DNA of 36,682 nt from a virus, in UHGV virus genome UHGV-1482696; one strand, given 5' to 3'. Positions 3,387-11,952 of the stretch are shown here, piece after piece. Made by a program: the position numbers and the translations under genes. How positions within the stretch are numbered: the stretch's first letter is position 1; every line of letters begins with the position of its first letter. Below the pieces are notes generated by a model. That model saw only the letters and a program-made list of their open reading frames with translations, made no database searches and was not told the origin of the DNA.

Positions 3387-4325
3387 ATGAATATTTCCGA
3401 TATTCGCGCAGGACTGCGCACGCTTGTAGAAAATGAAGAAACCACTTTTAAACAAATTGCTCTTGAGAGCGGGCTTTCTACCGGAACTATCAGTAGTTTT
3501 ATCAATGATAAGTACAACGGGGATAACGAGCGTGTTTCACAAATTCTGCAACGCTGGCTGGAAAAATATCATGCAGTTGCAGAACTACCTGAACCGCCCC
3601 GCTTTGTGGAAACGCAGACGGTAAAACAAATCTGGACAAGTATGCGTTTTGCCAGCCTGACTGAAAGTATTGCTGTTGTATGTGGCAATCCTGGTGTGGG
3701 CAAAACCGAAGCGGCCCGTGAATATCGCCGCACCAATAACAATGTCTGGATGATCACCATTACGCCATCCTGTGCCAGCGTTCTGGAATGTCTTACTGAA
3801 CTGGCGTTTGAGCTGGGAATGAATGACGCACCCCGCCGTAAAGGGCCGCTCTCCCGCGCCCTGCGACGTCGCCTTGAAGGTACACAGGGGCTGGTTATCA
3901 TCGACGAAGCTGATCATCTTGGTGCCGAAGTTCTGGAAGAACTCCGCCTGTTACAGGAATCAACCCGCACTGGCCTTGTGCTGATGGGAAATCACCGGGT
4001 TTATTCAAATATGACGGGGGGTAACAGAACGGTTGAATTTGCCCGTCTGTTTTCCCGTATTGCAAAGCGCACTGCAATTAATAAAACCAAAAAAGCCGAT
4101 GTAAAAGCTATTGCGGATGCCTGGCAGATTAACGGCGAAAATGAACTGGAGTTATTACAGCAGATTGCGCAGAAACCAGGTGCGCTTCGCATTCTGAATC
4201 ATTCACTTCGCCTTGCCGCCATGACGGCTCACGGTAAAGGTGAGCGTGTTAACGAAGATTATCTGCGTCAGGCTTTCCGTGAATTAGACCTGGACGTTGA
4301 TATTTCAACGCTGCTGCGTAATTAA
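3387..4325 (+). CDS. B: MuB ATP-dependent target DNA activator
   Basis: 312 aa, MNISDIRAGLRTLVENEETTFKQIALESG..., Walker A GNPGVGKT, matches Mu B essentially throughout. Confidence 0.95.
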   Translation: MNISDIRAGLRTLVENEETTFKQIALESGLSTGTISSFINDKYNGDNERVSQILQRWLEKYHAVAELPEPPRFVETQTVKQIWTSMRFASLTESIAVVCGNPGVGKTEAAREYRRTNNNVWMITITPSCASVLECLTELAFELGMNDAPRRKGPLSRALRRRLEGTQGLVIIDEADHLGAEVLEELRLLQESTRTGLVLMGNHRVYSNMTGGNRTVEFARLFSRIAKRTAINKTKKADVKAIADAWQINGENELELLQQIAQKPGALRILNHSLRLAAMTAHGKGERVNEDYLRQAFRELDLDVDISTLLRN

Positions 4326-5830: not shown

Positions 5831-6355
5831 ATGGCTAAACCAGCAAAACGTATCAAAAGTGCCGCAGCGGCTTATGTGCCACAAAACCGCGATGCGGTGA
5901 TTACCGATATTAAACGCATCGGGGATTTACAGCGCGAAGCATCACGTCTGGAAACGGAAATGAATGATGCCATCGCGGAAATTACGGAGAAATTTGCGGC
6001 CCGGATTGCACCGATTAAAACCGATATTGAAACCCTTTCAAAAGGCGTTCAGGGTTGGTGTGAAGCGAACCGCGACGAACTGACGAACGGCGGCAAAGTG
6101 AAGACGGCGAATCTTGTCACCGGTGATGTATCGTGGCGGGTCCGTCCACCATCAGTAAGTATTCGTGGTATGGATGCAGTGATGGAAACGCTGGAGCGTC
6201 TTGGCCTGCAACGCTTTATTCGCACGAAGCAGGAAATCAACAAGGAGGCGATTTTACTGGAACCAAAAGCCGTCGCAGGTGTTGCCGGAATTACGGTTAA
6301 ATCGGGAATTGAAGATTTTTCCATTATTCCGTTTGAACAGGAAGCCGGTATTTAA
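5831..6355 (+). CDS. gam: Gam host-nuclease inhibitor (Ku-like DNA end-binding protein)
   Basis: 174 aa MAKPAKRIKSAAAAYVPQNRDAVITDIKRIGDLQREASRLE... matches Mu Gam. Confidence 0.93.
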   Translation: MAKPAKRIKSAAAAYVPQNRDAVITDIKRIGDLQREASRLETEMNDAIAEITEKFAARIAPIKTDIETLSKGVQGWCEANRDELTNGGKVKTANLVTGDVSWRVRPPSVSIRGMDAVMETLERLGLQRFIRTKQEINKEAILLEPKAVAGVAGITVKSGIEDFSIIPFEQEAGI

Positions 6356-7609: not shown

Positions 7610-8161
7610 ATGAGTCGCACATCACTGATTAAATTAATCCATGTCGCCCGTCGGGAGCTACAACTCGACGATGACACTTACCGCGCGTTTCTGATGCAGA
7701 AAACGGGCAAAATCAGTTGCCGCGAGCTGACGGTCACGCAACTGGAACAGGTGTTCGATGCCATGAAAGAAAGCGGCTTTAAGAAGCAGAATAAACATCC
7801 ACGTCGCCGCTTTAAGGGACATGTTACCCCCCGCGAGAAGGTGTATAAAATCTGGCGGCAGATGGCAGAAGACGGTTTTATTGCCGATGACAGTGATACA
7901 GCACTGGACAAATACGTCGAACGACTGACTGCCAGACGTAATGGCGGACAGGGTGTTTCCACGCTGGCGTGGTGTCACGGAGAATCGTTGCAGGTTGTGC
8001 TTGAAACCCTGAAACAGTGGCACATCCGCTGTATTCGTGAGGCCTTTTCCCGTCACGGGCTTCCGTTGCCGGTCAGTCCATCCGGGCGTGAACTGCGCGG
8101 CTATGATGCCATGACGGCGGCTTATGCCCATGCCAGAAAGACACGGAGGATGGCACAATGA
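7610..8161 (+). CDS. gemA: GemA-like early protein
   Basis: ORF 7553..8161 trimmed to ATG 7610 (GGAGG 7 nt upstream) giving 183 aa (MSRTSLIKLIHVARRELQLDDDTYRAFLMQKTG...); located immediately upstream of mor as in Mu. Confidence 0.7.
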   Translation: MSRTSLIKLIHVARRELQLDDDTYRAFLMQKTGKISCRELTVTQLEQVFDAMKESGFKKQNKHPRRRFKGHVTPREKVYKIWRQMAEDGFIADDSDTALDKYVERLTARRNGGQGVSTLAWCHGESLQVVLETLKQWHIRCIREAFSRHGLPLPVSPSGRELRGYDAMTAAYAHARKTRRMAQ

Positions 8162-8547
8162 CGGAAGATTTATTTGGTGATTTGCAGGATGACACTATCC
8201 TGGCACATCTTGACAATCCCGCAGAGGATACGTCACGCTTTCCGGCACTGCTGGCGGAGCTGAACGATTTACTACGCGGGGAATTGTCCCGGCTGGGTGT
8301 TGATCCTGCCCATTCACTGGAGATTGTTGTGGCTATCTGTAAGCATCTGGGCGGCGGTCAGGTCTACATTCCACGCGGTCAGGTTCTGGATTCGCTGATT
8401 CGGGATTTGCGTATCTGGAATGATTTCAACGGTCGCAATGTTCACGAACTGGCAATCCGTCATGGTGTGACATTTAACACAGTCTATAAAGCCATCCGAC
8501 GAATGCGGCGTATAAAGTATCGTCAGTATTCCCCCCCTTTGTTTTAA
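8158..8547 (+). CDS. mor: Mor middle-operon transcription activator
   Basis: 129 aa; paralogous to C (shared ...FNGRN...EL....G motif region); overlaps gemA stop (ATGA). Confidence 0.88.
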   Translation: MTEDLFGDLQDDTILAHLDNPAEDTSRFPALLAELNDLLRGELSRLGVDPAHSLEIVVAICKHLGGGQVYIPRGQVLDSLIRDLRIWNDFNGRNVHELAIRHGVTFNTVYKAIRRMRRIKYRQYSPPLF

Positions 8548-8552
8548 ACAGT

Positions 8553-8577
8553 AAAGCCGGTTAATCCGGCTTTTTTT
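8553..8577 (+). terminator. Intrinsic terminator at end of early operon
   Basis: AAAGCCGG-TTAAT-CCGGCTTTTTTT: GC stem 8555-8560/8566-8571 followed by T7 run. Confidence 0.8.
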
Positions 8578-8629
8578 ACGCCCTCAATATTCTGTTGTGA
8601 CGATAAAACGTTCATGACAGGAGGGCAAC
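8578..8629 (+). promoter_or_regulatory. Probable Mor-dependent middle promoter Pm
   Basis: Only intergenic space between mor and the next operon; by Mu synteny the Mor-activated promoter for the C-containing transcript lies directly after the early terminator. Confidence 0.5.
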
Positions 8630-9190
8630 ATGCCTGAGTTTTCCCCTGCATTCCTTCATTCGCTGAATTTCGTTATACGCCCTGATGTTGAAGGTGGCTA
8701 TGTTAATGATCCTGCCGACCGTGGCGGCGAAACGAAATACGGCATTTCTGACCGTCGCGACGGCGTTATTGATGGCAAAACCGATGTTAACGGTGACGGA
8801 AAACCTGATACCCGCATTAAGGATTTAACCCGCGAACAGGCAGCGCAGATCTACTGGCGTGATTACTGGCTGGCGGCAAAGTGTAACGAATGGCCTGATG
8901 GTGTTTCCTTATTCGTCTTTGATGCTGCCGTTCAGCACGGTGTTAAACGCGCGATTCAAATCCTCCAGGCGGCAGCAGGTGTTGATGATGATGGCATCGT
9001 TGGCAAAAACACCCGCGCAGCCGTTCTGCGTGCCGACACTGACTGGCTGCTGTTGCAGTGTTTCCTGCGTCGTTCCCGCTATTACGCAGGGATTATCAAA
9101 TCCAGTGCCTCGCAGGGGAAATATCTGAACGGCTGGTTTAACCGTCTGGATCTGCTCGCCAGCGCCTGCCGGGAGGTTCTGCATGGGTAA
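8630..9190 (+). CDS. GH108-family muramidase-like protein with C-terminal peptidoglycan-binding domain
   Basis: N-terminal motif VEGGYVNDPADRGGETKYGIS typical of glycoside hydrolase family 108 (catalytic Glu in EGGY); C-terminal region resembles PG_binding_3; RBS GGAGGG upstream. Confidence 0.7.
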   Translation: MPEFSPAFLHSLNFVIRPDVEGGYVNDPADRGGETKYGISDRRDGVIDGKTDVNGDGKPDTRIKDLTREQAAQIYWRDYWLAAKCNEWPDGVSLFVFDAAVQHGVKRAIQILQAAAGVDDDGIVGKNTRAAVLRADTDWLLLQCFLRRSRYYAGIIKSSASQGKYLNGWFNRLDLLASACREVLHG

Positions 9191-9401
9191 AGGGTGGGAT
9201 GCGTCCTTTCAGTTCGGCAGGCGCGAACGTTTACGACAGGAGGTATTACATCGGGAGGCCGGAGGCCCGCCACCAAAGCCAATGGATTACACAGGGCACG
9301 ATGGCACCCACGGAAGTTATTACATGAAAGGCTGGCAGTCAGTTGATATGCCGGAAATTCTTCATCATTGCCTGCTTTACAGGGAGAAACATTATGTCTG
9401 A
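9183..9401 (+). CDS. Middle-operon hypothetical protein
   Basis: 72-aa ORF exactly filling the gap, start overlapping upstream stop (ATGGGTAA) and stop overlapping downstream start (ATGTCTGA). Confidence 0.5.
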   Translation: MGKGWDASFQFGRRERLRQEVLHREAGGPPPKPMDYTGHDGTHGSYYMKGWQSVDMPEILHHCLLYREKHYV

Positions 9402-9756
9402 GCGTTCTGCTCGTCAGTGGCCTGATTTTTTATCGGTGGTGTTACTGGCGCTGTTATTGTGGATAAGTCTGTTTTGTGGCTGGCGCGCGCTGATGTTTTG
9501 CTGTGCCTCGGTTTTCAGTGTTGCTTTATGTGTTGCCGCTGATTGTCTGGATGCGCTGATAATGAGCTGCCGGGTGCCTGAACATTTTGCCCGGTTCGTC
9601 TGGCCTCTGACCTGGCTGGGGAGTCTGTCCGGGCTGGGATTAGCCGTGATGGCAACGTCTCAACTGAAAACGGGTCCTGAGCATGTCATCTGGGCGCTGG
9701 CCGGATTGCTGACGTTCTGGCTCTCCTTTCGTTTTCGCGCTCGTCTGTTCGGGTAA
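9394..9756 (+). CDS. Middle-operon integral membrane protein
   Basis: ORF 9343..9756 trimmed to ATG 9394 (AGGGAG upstream); 120 aa with three to four hydrophobic helices (VVLLALLLWISLFCGW, VFSVALCVAADCL, LTWLGSLSGLGLAVMA, VIWALAGLLTFWL). Confidence 0.6.
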   Translation: MSERSARQWPDFLSVVLLALLLWISLFCGWRALMFCCASVFSVALCVAADCLDALIMSCRVPEHFARFVWPLTWLGSLSGLGLAVMATSQLKTGPEHVIWALAGLLTFWLSFRFRARLFG

Positions 9757-9765
9757 AGGGGCACC

Positions 9766-9885
9766 ATGTACAGAAAATTCAGTGATGAATGTTTCGGGCC
9801 GTCCACGCTGATTAATGCGATAAAAGTGATTGCCCTTGTGGTTCTGATAACCATCAGTGCCGTGGTGTATCTTTCTGTCTGTTAA
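9766..9885 (+). CDS. Small single-pass membrane peptide (39 aa), not in ORF track
   Basis: ATG 9766 preceded by AAGGGG; MYRKFSDECFGPSTLINAIKVIALVVLITISAVVYLSVC has one clear hydrophobic helix; fills the gap between the membrane ORF and C. Confidence 0.4.
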   Translation: MYRKFSDECFGPSTLINAIKVIALVVLITISAVVYLSVC

Positions 9886-9897
9886 CCGGGGGAAAAT

Positions 9898-10320
9898 ATG
9901 CAGCATGATTTATTTGAACACGATCCGGCAATTCGCCAGTTAATCGGACATATTGATAACATCCCGGCCCCGGAACTGGAATCACGCTGGCCCCGTTCGG
10001 TGGTTGATCTGATTGATGTTCTGGAAAACGAACTGAAACGCCAGAACGTCAGCAATCCCCGTGAGCTTGCCCGTAAACAGGCCGTTGCCCTGTCCTGTTT
10101 TCTGGGCGGGCGGCAGTTTTACATCCCCTGCGGCGATACGATCCTGACCGCGTTACGCGACGATTTGCTTTACTGCCAGTTCAATGGTCGTAACATGGAA
10201 GAACTGCGTCGCCAGTACCGCCTGTCCCAGCCGCAGATCTACCAGATTATTGCCCGCCAGAGAAAGCTGCATACACGACGTCATCAGCCTGATCTGTTCT
10301 CACCTGAAAGCCAGAAATAA
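9898..10320 (+). CDS. C: C late-gene transcription activator
   Basis: 140 aa MQHDLFEHDPAIRQLIGHIDNIPAPELESRW... matches Mu C; Mor paralogue. Confidence 0.93.
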   Translation: MQHDLFEHDPAIRQLIGHIDNIPAPELESRWPRSVVDLIDVLENELKRQNVSNPRELARKQAVALSCFLGGRQFYIPCGDTILTALRDDLLYCQFNGRNMEELRRQYRLSQPQIYQIIARQRKLHTRRHQPDLFSPESQK

Positions 10321-10343
10321 CCGGCATCCTGCCGGTTATTTCC
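10317..10343 (+). terminator. Hairpin terminator after C
   Basis: TAACCGGCA-TCC-TGCCGGTTA perfect 9-bp stem followed by TTTCC. Confidence 0.5.
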
Positions 10344-10411
10344 TGTCACCATAATCCCGCACCTGCCATCTGATTTTTTAGACTGCCATCAGAGCATTTT
10401 TTCAGGGAAGC

Positions 10412-10930
10412 ATGATGGCGGGGATACCAAAAAAACTGAAAGCCGCACTGCTGGCGGTAACGATTGCCGGTGGCGGTGTGGGTGGTTATCAGGAAATGAC
10501 CCGTCAGTCTCTGATCCATCTGGAAAATATCGCTTATCTGCCTTACCGCGATATTGCCGGTGTGCTTACGGTCTGTGTGGGACATACCGGGCCGGATATC
10601 GAAATGCGCCGTTACAGCCATGCGGAGTGTATGGCTCTCCTCGACAGTGATTTAAAACCGGTTTATGCGGTAATCGATCGTCTTGTCAGGGTGCCGCTGA
10701 CGCCATATCAGAAAACGGCGCTGGCAACGTTTATTTTCAACACCGGTGTTACCGCATTCAGTAAATCAACGCTGCTGAAAAAACTCAATGCCGGTGATTA
10801 CGCCGGAGCGCGTGACCAGATGGCCCGCTGGGTGTTTGCCGCAGGCCATAAATGGAAAGGACTGATGAACCGTCGCGAAGTGGAAATGGCAATCTGGAAT
10901 ATCAGGGGGGCGGATGACCTTCGCCAGTAA
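10412..10930 (+). CDS. lys: SAR endolysin (T4-lysozyme-like muramidase with signal-arrest-release N-terminus)
   Basis: 172 aa; weakly hydrophobic Gly/Ala-rich N-terminal segment LKAALLAVTIAGGGVGGY then catalytic E...D...T triad (ENIAYLPYRDIAGVLTVCVGHTG); matches Mu Lys. Confidence 0.92.
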   Translation: MMAGIPKKLKAALLAVTIAGGGVGGYQEMTRQSLIHLENIAYLPYRDIAGVLTVCVGHTGPDIEMRRYSHAECMALLDSDLKPVYAVIDRLVRVPLTPYQKTALATFIFNTGVTAFSKSTLLKKLNAGDYAGARDQMARWVFAAGHKWKGLMNRREVEMAIWNIRGADDLRQ

Positions 10931-11300
10931 AAGTTTACTGCTGGCAGCCGTGTTTGCCGCCGTTCTGTCCGGGGTGTTGTGGCACAGGCTGGACAGCACC
11001 CGCCACGATAACCAGACGCTGCGCCGTGAATTACAGACGGAGCAACAGGCCCGCAACACGGCTGAATGGTTGTTACACGGTCAGGAACAGACGATGCAGG
11101 TATTTTCTGCTATCCGTGCCGCAAATCGTGCCGCACGGCTGGCAGATGAGACAGAACATCATGATGCAAAAGAAAAAATTACAACAGCCATTACCGGTGA
11201 CAATTGCAGCACTCGTCCTGTGCCTGCCGTTGCTGCTGACAGGTTGCGGGAACTCGAAAAACGCACCCGTGCCATCGGTGGTGATCCTGCCCGAAACTGA
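10914..11300 (+). CDS. i-spanin (Rz-like inner-membrane spanin subunit)
   Basis: N-terminal TM helix LLLAAVFAAVLSGVLW followed by charged coiled-coil region (RRELQTEQQARNTAEW); directly after endolysin. Confidence 0.75.
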   Translation: MTFASKSLLLAAVFAAVLSGVLWHRLDSTRHDNQTLRRELQTEQQARNTAEWLLHGQEQTMQVFSAIRAANRAARLADETEHHDAKEKITTAITGDNCSTRPVPAVAADRLRELEKRTRAIGGDPARN

Positions 11301-11502
11301 TGCAGAACTGACGGAAGCAACGCCCGTTCCGCCCATGCCACAGCCCCTGACGTGGGGAGCATCCCTTCTCTGGAATGCTGACCTGTTGATGGCGCTCGGG
11401 CAGTGCAACCGCGACAAGGCATCAGTCCGGGAACAGGAGACCCGAAGGAAAGAAATTTATGAACGAAGACCAGAACCGGGCGGTGGCGCTGCTGCTCGCT
11501 GA
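11161..11502 (+). CDS. o-spanin (Rz1-like outer-membrane lipoprotein), overlapping i-spanin in another frame
   Basis: MMQKKKLQQPLPVTIAALVLCLPLLLTGC: lipoprotein signal peptide with lipobox LLTGC; Pro-rich mature region; 3-prime end uncertain. Confidence 0.6.
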   Translation: MMQKKKLQQPLPVTIAALVLCLPLLLTGCGNSKNAPVPSVVILPETDAELTEATPVPPMPQPLTWGASLLWNADLLMALGQCNRDKASVREQETRRKEIYERRPEPGGGAAAR

Positions 11503-11653
11503 ACTCTGGCAGGGGGATACCCGTGATATTCCCCGCCCGGCGGCGTATGACCCGCCTGTATTGTGTGCCGGTTGCGGTCGTGAGCTGCGGCCTGATGTGC
11601 TGAGACAGCAGCCGATGGCGAACTACTGCCACTGGTGCCGTGGAGCAGAATAA
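11459..11653 (+). CDS. TraR/DksA-type C4 zinc-finger protein
   Basis: 64 aa with C-x2-C-x17-C-x2-C (CAGCGRELRPDVLRQQPMANYCHWC). Confidence 0.65.
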   Translation: MNEDQNRAVALLLAELWQGDTRDIPRPAAYDPPVLCAGCGRELRPDVLRQQPMANYCHWCRGAE

Positions 11654-11952
11654 TGGATTTGATTTCAGTTTTAGCGTTATGGCCTTACCTGTTGCCTGTT
11701 GTGGCCGGTGGGGCCGTCTGGGCAATGCGTCGTAGTTTTGCCAGCACTGAGCGTGTGGAGCGTCTTGAAAACCGGATGACCGAAATGGAAACCCGCTACG
11801 CCAGCATCCCTGGCACAGAAGATGTACACGAAATGCGCCTGCGAATTGCGGAGCTGTCCGGCGATATCCGGGTGCTGTCCCAGCGGGTGCAGTCATTTTC
11901 CCATCAACTGGAGCTGCTGCTTGAAAACGCAGTAAACCGGAGTAATTCATGA
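11653..11952 (+). CDS. Small membrane protein, Mu gp25-like (lysis-associated)
   Basis: ATG overlaps upstream stop (TAATG); N-terminal TM helix LISVLALWPYLLPVVAGGAVWA then coiled coil; position matches Mu gp25. Confidence 0.65.
   Translation: MDLISVLALWPYLLPVVAGGAVWAMRRSFASTERVERLENRMTEMETRYASIPGTEDVHEMRLRIAELSGDIRVLSQRVQSFSHQLELLLENAVNRSNS

Follow-up and report, generated by a model that had tools for sequence, protein, structure and literature searches.

Why would a Mu-like prophage that encodes the signal-anchor-release (SAR) endolysin of phage Mu also carry a gene for a second, soluble muramidase? The question is raised by virus genome UHGV-1482696, a DNA stretch of 36,682 nucleotides (nt; the window in what follows), in which an intact gene of glycoside hydrolase family 108 (GH108) occupies positions 8630-9190. 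The gene family is known, as are Mu gp18-gp20, the counterparts of the genes that follow; what is unusual is an intact soluble GH108 enzyme beside Mu's SAR endolysin in a holin-less setting. The gene lies in a Mu-type middle operon, is under strong purifying selection, and is probably an ancestral endolysin that Mu, on the simplest account, has lost.

A GH108 muramidase at the head of a Mu-type middle operon

By nucleotide comparison, the Mor-to-C region of the window (8100-10400) matches Muvirus phages, identifying the window as a Muvirus prophage. Yersinia phages vB_YpM_5/6 cover 84% of this region at 97.9% identity, and Mu, D108 and SfMu cover 57-75% of it at about 94%. The GH108 gene has a 100% identical counterpart in a prophage of Escherichia coli strain elppa5, and the Prokaryotic Genome Annotation Pipeline (PGAP) already names that counterpart 'glycoside hydrolase family 108 protein'. 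The region 8545-10320 is the head of a Mu-type middle operon. Between its promoter, Pm, and C lie four open reading frames (ORFs), all on the + strand and each preceded at 4-8 nt by a Shine-Dalgarno sequence, which for GH108 is a strong AGGAGG. The features, in order, are:

8545-8600, + strand: Mor-dependent middle promoter Pm (52 of 56 nt identical to the Mu promoter feature, AF083977 9163-9233; function by analogy with Mu)
8630-9190, + strand: GH108-family N-acetylmuramidase with C-terminal PG_binding_3 domain, 186 amino acids (aa), predicted from Pfam, PHROG and PDB matches
9183-9401, + strand: gp18 orthologue, soluble three-helix protein of 72 aa (90% identical to Mu gp18; PHROG 2121)
9394-9756, + strand: gp19 orthologue, multi-pass inner-membrane protein of 120 aa (100% identical to Mu gp19; PHROG 4975)
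9766-9885, + strand: gp20 orthologue, 39-aa peptide with a single transmembrane domain (TMD; 100% identical to Mu gp20; PHROG 19823)
9898-10320, + strand: C, Mor-family activator of late promoters and last gene of the middle operon (Pfam Mor, E 9e-34; 99% identical to Mu C)

The promoter and the genes from gp18 to C, together with the lysis genes gp22 (99%) and gp23 (98%), are orthologous to those of Mu and stand in the same order; the difference is that Mu has a leader of about 20 nt where the window has the 561-bp GH108 gene.

Assignment of Pm rests on homology with the mapped promoter of Mu. Pm includes a dyad, GCCGGTTAATCCGGC (8556-8570), followed by a T-run, and on the Mu model the two together would double as the terminator of the early transcript. 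Mu, without GH108, has the same dyad ahead of gp18, inside the stretch annotated as Mor-activated Pm, and its record marks the dyad as a predicted terminator as well. A consensus promoter and terminator scan of the window picked up neither Pm nor the dyad, as would be expected with an activator-dependent promoter. The initial annotation had put the muramidase gene first behind a middle promoter, and the near-identity to Pm bears this out: GH108 would be the first cistron of the Pm transcript, as judged by homology with Mu.

The GH108 signature and C-terminal peptidoglycan-binding region read from the sequence beforehand are both recovered above cut-off in Pfam, as Glyco_hydro_108 (PF05838; 87.4 bits against a cut-off of 21.2, E 9e-25, residues 20-104) and PG_binding_3 (52.3 bits against 24.6, residues 107-173). 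The product carries the motif VEGGYVNDPADRGGETKYGIS, matches PHROG 315 'endolysin' (E 1e-51), and has PDB homologues in NMB1012 (2IKB), Brucella SagA (7DNP) and the TtsA homologues 6V3Z and 6V40. The catalytic glutamate is retained: in the HMMER alignment E21 (of E21-G-G-Y), D30 and T35 align with Glu17, Asp26 and Thr31 of SagA 7DNP, its catalytic triad, which is held in common with T4 lysozyme (PMC8334348). The product is thus a predicted muramidase with its catalytic residues intact and, as had been proposed, the gene is a second muralytic gene distinct from that of the SAR endolysin (10412/10415).

The enzyme is predicted to be soluble. A hydropathy scan found no signal peptide, SAR domain or TMD in it; its Kyte-Doolittle 17-residue maximum is 1.02, in an internal helix, against 1.46 for the SAR segment of gp22 (residues 9-25) and 2.3-2.8 for the TMDs of gp19, gp20 and gp23. 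The N-terminus, MPEFSPAFLHSLNFVIRPDVEGGY, belongs to the catalytic domain, and the protein is not a SAR endolysin. It is soluble and without a secretion signal, as a holin-dependent endolysin would be, but no cognate holin accompanies it in the same phage, and its gene, placed after the Mor-dependent middle promoter and ahead of C and Plys, would be transcribed before the late genes, to judge from the timing in Mu. That the window has no canonical holin had been remarked earlier and agrees with holin-less Mu, which uses the gp25 releasin (Chamblee et al. 2022, PMC9239132).

An insertion of about 14 residues, within residues ~41-62 of the product (SDRRDGVIDGKTDVNGDGKPDT), sets enterobacterial Mu-like GH108 proteins apart from the orthologues of Vibrio and Shewanella and from the homologues in the PDB, which lack it. 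The DVNGDGKPD stretch of this insertion may be akin to the DxNxDGxxD calcium-binding loops of dockerins or EF-hands.

Among characterised proteins, the founding GH108 member, gp61 of coliphage N4, shares the EGGY motif and the muramidase family with the window protein (PMC13284979), a likeness drawn from the family definition and the Pfam match; unlike the window enzyme it is the single late lysin of a virulent podophage. TtsA of the Salmonella Typhi type 10 secretion system (T10SS) and SagA of Brucella abortus, an autolysin associated with a type IV secretion system, have the GH108-type fold, the C-terminal peptidoglycan-binding domain and the Glu/Asp/Thr triad seen here, and TtsA likewise has no secretion signal. 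Both are distant from the window protein (E 7e-6 to 2e-17). SagA has a C-terminal TMD, and both are chromosomal, non-lytic aids to secretion, unlike a gene of the phage lytic cycle.

The partner of GH108 is gp18

The initial annotation noted a coupled 72-aa ORF after the muramidase and missed that this ORF, gp18, is the partner that truly travels with GH108. Its start at 9183 overlaps the GH108 stop codon (ATGGGTAA). Homologues of gp18 lie directly downstream of GH108 in Mu-like phages of E. coli PSS-15, Klebsiella, Vibrio and Shewanella (gp18-family loci L005 6566-6793, L009 4070-4288, L007 4016-4279 and L008 4035-4295); in Vibrio phage 1.028.O and Shewanella phage MuM16-2 the ORF right after GH108 starts MGRNWEF or MGKNWDY and aligns with gp18. 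A search of 5.8 billion proteins gave 60 homologues of 51-96 aa, all with the recent precomputed Pfam family PF26867; where a source is named, it is Enterobacterales, Vibrio, Aliivibrio or Shewanella. The AlphaFold2 model has three helices (pLDDT 86.7), and a Foldseek comparison with the PDB returned only noise (best E 1.9, TM 0.25-0.35). Between the window and Mu the ratio of non-synonymous to synonymous divergence (dN/dS) of gp18 is 0.05; purifying selection on gp18 in Mu, which has no GH108, points to a function that does not require the enzyme.

PHROG 2121, which gp18 matches, has 284 positions; gp18 covers 3-73 of them, and 89-281 are covered by a different protein of about 200 aa that occurs in the relatives described below (window 9183-9398 against L005 7175-7780 and L007 4264-4851). 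This division of the profile suggested fused or frameshifted forms, and in Vibrio and Shewanella phages the two ORFs, read in different frames, share 16 nt; none of the 60 gp18 homologues is a fusion with the ~200-aa protein. Their union in one PHROG may be a clustering artefact.

The two membrane proteins that follow were described correctly beforehand and interpreted less well. The product of 9394-9756 is indeed a multi-pass membrane protein, identical to Mu gp19, with three clear hydrophobic peaks in the hydropathy scan and four TMDs (N-in, C-in) annotated for gp19 in the Mu record AF083977. The 39-aa single-helix ORF at 9766-9885 is present and has its single TMD; it is not new, since it is Mu gp20, annotated in the same record. 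The RefSeq/PGAP annotation of the elppa5 prophage, which has the same sequence as the window, omits both gp20 and the outer-membrane spanin gene gp23.1 (L004 5127-5269 and 6672-6831), and both are annotated in the updated AF083977. Grouping of GH108 with these membrane proteins as one module does not survive comparison, as gp19 and gp20 occur in GH108-less Mu and gp19 is missing from 7 of 10 GH108-carrying loci with a C gene (C-type loci). In Mu they do not behave as a holin-like partner of the lysis system either. Mu gp19 and gp20, alone or together, give no lethality triggered by depolarisation with dinitrophenol (DNP) and are not holins (PMC9239132), and their inactivation leaves lysis unaffected according to section 5 of that paper, which cites Mathee & Howe 1993.

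The same block as main lysis cassette in relatives

Beyond the window type, four E. coli genomes carry a GH108 gene with 76% nucleotide identity in a different type of Mu-like prophage. PSS-15 and STEC383 carry GemA and then Mor ahead of a 198-aa GH108 protein (74% aa identity); next come a protein of 75 aa with 74% identity to gp18, a membrane protein of 136 aa and a protein of 202 aa, and after these a TraR-type zinc finger protein, DUF2730 and the terminase genes. They have neither C nor a Phage_lysozyme gene. Klebsiella phage Kp4866-3 has the same gene order as PSS-15, and Vibrio phage 1.028.O and Shewanella phage MuM16-2 differ from it by the lack of the extra membrane protein. All five thus run from Mor and GH108 through a gp18-like gene to DUF2730 without C or another lysin. 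Their GH108 proteins stand in the same position as that of the window, downstream of Mor and a conserved dyad with the gp18 homologue next; those of PSS-15 and Kp4866-3 are 72-74% identical to it, and the endolysins of 1.028.O (NVP1028O_20) and MuM16-2 (p20) belong to the same two-domain family at 43% identity. GH108 plus peptidoglycan-binding proteins are listed as endolysins of nine Vibrio Mu-like phages (Chamblee et al. 2022 Table S1, PMC9239132).

IMG/VR was searched with the gp18 alignment, and the 80 loci obtained were classed by tblastn with proteins of the window and of the reference loci:

Mor, GH108, gp18, sometimes a gp19-like gene (4-TMD protein), ~200-aa protein, TraR, DUF2730 (hol200-type): 57 loci
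GH108 with C and a late lysin (window type, including 2 SE11-type): 10 loci
Mu-type, with C and lys22 and no GH108: 13 loci
hol200-type without GH108: 1 locus

In hol200-type relatives, judging from gene content, GH108 is the endolysin and the Mor-GH108 block, under a single Mor-type activator, is the main lysis cassette, a role that the initial annotation overlooked. The dyad AAGCCGGT(T/A)AATCCGGC with its T-run lies downstream of mor and is kept upstream of GH108 in the window and in the PSS-15 and Kp4866-3 lineages and ahead of gp18 in Mu (window 8556-8577, L001 1957-1978, L005 ~5895-5915, L009 ~3405-3425), which suggests that the promoter driving the whole cassette of hol200-type phages is homologous to Pm.

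In these relatives GH108 is the sole lysin and is accompanied by the ~200-aa protein, with no C; the window has C, the SAR endolysin and spanins and no holin-like gene. The ~200-aa protein is a putative, holin-like protein only: 8 of 17 members give sub-threshold GTA_holin_3TM matches (at most 20.4 bits against 24.8), its hydrophobic segments are C-terminal, and a PDB profile search gave no informative match. No homologue of it was found in the window by tblastn (best E 0.08-0.29), and in none of the survey loci does it co-occur with the block of C, lys22 and spanins. In the Muvirus lineage the holin-like gene appears to have been replaced by C, the SAR endolysin and the spanins. Among C-type loci, GH108 is found with gp19 or a gp19-like gene in 3 and without it in 7, and gp19 occurs without GH108 in 8, so the two are not linked. 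In a set of 5,426 complete E. coli genomes, the window-type GH108 allele occurs in 8 and a Mu-type C gene in 41.

For vB_YpM_5/6, Table S1 of Chamblee et al. gives only the PF00959 lysin (PMC9239132), so the second lysin was not remarked on there; it is also absent from the paper describing these Yersinia phages.

A third architecture is seen in prophages of E. coli TUM9757 and SE11 (L011 and L012, 1801-4161), with Mor, GH108, gp18, a gp19-like protein (126 aa), an ORF of 41 aa, a C-like activator (136 aa) and a Phage_lysozyme-family protein (142 aa) that has DUF2730 directly after it; the annotation shows no spanin gene between these last two. The interval between Mor and GH108 also varies. 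In the Vibrio and Shewanella phages it holds an ORF of about 150 aa with a signal-peptide-like N-terminus (L007 2917-3369, L008 2922-3371), and in Kp4866-3 an unrelated ORF for a membrane protein of 110 aa (L009 3053-3385). The position immediately after mor thus looks like an insertion site for variable genes.

Selection on GH108 and its history

Six GH108 copies were compared, one each from the window and vB_YpM_5 and four from E. coli prophages whose downstream backgrounds are of three kinds; 13-24 synonymous and only 0-3 non-synonymous changes separate them (dN/dS 0.02-0.04). All 10 C-type IMG/VR copies are intact at 186 aa with an invariant E-x8-D-x4-T pattern, and neither in these nor in the compared E. 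coli and Yersinia-phage copies was a frameshift or stop codon found. Identity among these C-type copies is at least 97.8%, and with hol200-type copies it never exceeds 76%. Divergence of GH108 from hol200-type phages (72-74% aa identity) is comparable to that of the flanking genes gp18 (68-74%), Mor (61-63%) and gp26 (59-61%), and guanine-plus-cytosine (GC) content is flat across the gene. Similar divergence, flat GC content and purifying selection together argue for long co-residence with the flanking genes, not for a recent foreign insertion or a decaying pseudogene. Origin as a foreign island (moron) was considered and rejected, given the flat GC content, the lack of a promoter or terminator of its own and the translational coupling to gp18.

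Mu, D108 and SfMu are without GH108 exactly between Pm and gp18. In Mu and SfMu the leader between the two is about 20 nt, and in the window and vB_YpM_5 it is replaced by some 575 bp carrying the gene. GH108 is probably the ancestral endolysin common to gammaproteobacterial Mu-like phages; most simply, Mu, D108 and SfMu lost it, and it was retained in the window prophage, in vB_YpM_5/6 and in about ten IMG/VR contigs. That the gene was lost in Mu and not regained in the window lineage is argued from the phylogenetic distribution and from co-divergence. The junction itself is uninformative on this point: hardly anything but the gp18 Shine-Dalgarno sequence is common to the Mu leader and the end of the GH108 gene (3' side). 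What the initial annotation called a role not evident from sequence can in this way be narrowed to that of an endolysin common to Mu-like phages.

The window is also a recombinant with respect to Mu. Synonymous divergence (dS) between the two is 0.36 for Mor and 1.1 for 5' gp18, against at most 0.07 from mid-gp18 through gp23, and this drop places a recombination joint within gp18, at about 9314-9341. On its upstream side (Mor, GH108 and 5' gp18) the window resembles vB_YpM_5 and has diverged from Mu. Downstream (3' gp18 through gp23) it is nearly identical to Mu and unlike vB_YpM_5, which is without gp19.

Possible roles beside the SAR endolysin

Downstream of C the window carries the lysis genes of Mu:

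10415-10930, + strand: gp22, SAR endolysin of the T4-lysozyme type, in Mu the late lysin established by experiment (Pfam Phage_lysozyme, E 4e-37; 99% identical to Mu gp22)
10914-11300, + strand: gp23, inner-membrane spanin (i-spanin; 98% identical to Mu gp23)
~11161-11502, + strand: gp23.1, outer-membrane spanin (o-spanin; lipobox LLTGC in an overlapping frame; Mu annotation)
11653-11952, + strand: gp25, releasin (Pfam DUF2730; Mu annotation; function known from Mu, PMC9239132)

In Mu, lysis uses the gp22 SAR endolysin, the gp23/gp23.1 spanins and the gp25 releasin, which is needed for release of gp22 and is not a holin (PMC9239132). K6, K7 and the catalytic region of gp22 are intact in the window. 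For GH108, the role given about an even chance of being the right one is that of an auxiliary soluble muramidase, acting once the gp22/gp25/spanin pathway breaches the envelope. Mor would switch on Pm and GH108 would build up in the cytoplasm from middle times, harmless because it has neither export signal nor holin. C would then activate gp22, gp23/23.1 and gp25; as gp25 frees the SAR endolysin and the envelope begins to fail, GH108 could reach the murein. There it would add a second muramidase activity on peptidoglycan of the diaminopimelic acid (DAP) type and complete or hasten dissolution of the sacculus.

Several considerations count against this role. The family, catalytic residues, synteny and purifying selection were computed here, and the muramidase activity, cytoplasmic localisation and timing of GH108, like the auxiliary role itself, are inferred. 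A lysin that acts only after envelope failure would be expected to be under weak selection, yet dN/dS is very low, which fits better a fitness-relevant role. Whatever GH108 contributes is dispensable, since more than half of the sampled C-type phages do without it and Mu achieves good lysis in its absence.

The low dN/dS leads to a role that is possible and rather unlikely, in which GH108 would be exported before lysis in a holin-independent manner, via gp25 (DUF2730) or gp20, and would help to initiate or time lysis. An enzyme that gets to its substrate early enough to matter would make the strong purifying selection seen in C-type phages, which have no holin, less puzzling. A DUF2730 gene lies downstream of GH108 in every hol200-type survey locus, and DUF2730 proteins pair with cytoplasmic endolysins, where their role is unknown (Chamblee et al. 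2022, PMC9239132). TtsA, a GH108 enzyme also lacking a signal, gets to the periplasm via a still unidentified holin. However, Mu gp25 causes no lethality and forms no holes (PMC9239132), gp25 of the window is only 26-31% identical to the DUF2730 proteins of hol200-type phages, and those phages have a holin-like gene that could do the export there. As for gp20, it is present in the survey loci with or without GH108.

A broader proposal, more speculative and doubtful as a whole, joins this route to the history of the operon: gp18-gp20 would be the remnant of an ancestral lysis cassette, and GH108 would have been kept through holin-independent access to the wall, for which DUF2730 releasins, possibly with gp18, are the candidates.

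That GH108 is instead a functionless evolutionary leftover, carried between an essential promoter and the essential C gene, is improbable. Its absence from Mu, D108, SfMu and 13 of the 23 sampled C-type loci without obvious cost would fit such a relic, as would the disappearance of its presumed holin partner and the variable deletion of the adjoining gp19. A relic is hard to reconcile with a dN/dS of 0.02-0.04 over up to 24 synonymous changes, with reading frames free of frameshifts and stops in the compared copies, or with the invariant catalytic triad and retained AGGAGG.

Least probable is that GH108 serves non-lytic wall remodelling or secretion with gp19 and gp20, in the manner of TtsA or SagA, in the envelope or superinfection functions at middle times that the initial annotation suggested: this reading can appeal to GH108 enzymes in non-lytic secretion in Salmonella and Brucella, to the membrane-protein genes directly downstream and to expression earlier than the late genes, but the nearest relatives are without exception Mu-like phage endolysins encoded at the corresponding place, the operon belongs to the lytic cycle and has no cargo gene, gp19 is absent from most GH108-carrying C-type phages, gp19 and gp20 also occur without GH108, and both are dispensable non-holins in Mu (PMC9239132). 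Membership of the TtsA-type T10SS group was rejected on this genomic context and on the NCBIfam equivalog NF040573 (holin_dep_muram), for which the product scores 71.2 bits against a cut-off of 240.

Implications for Mu-like phages

Mu is the model holin-less phage, and the mechanism of DUF2730 releasins is an open question, above all their part in Mu-like phages with soluble endolysins (PMC9239132). If GH108, as an auxiliary muramidase, is merely a redundant second lysin, the locus is a case of ordinary mosaicism. The comparison also offers a simple evolutionary account of Mu gp18-gp20, as remains of an older GH108-based cassette overwritten by the block of C, SAR endolysin and spanins.

The window prophage and the plaque-forming vB_YpM_5/6 combine a soluble GH108 enzyme under strong selection with a SAR endolysin and a type I releasin, and have no holin. 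Such genomes offer a ready genetic system for asking whether a soluble endolysin can be used without a holin and what the widely conserved gp18 does. Were GH108 to reach the wall through a DUF2730 releasin, DUF2730 proteins would be general export factors for soluble as well as SAR endolysins.

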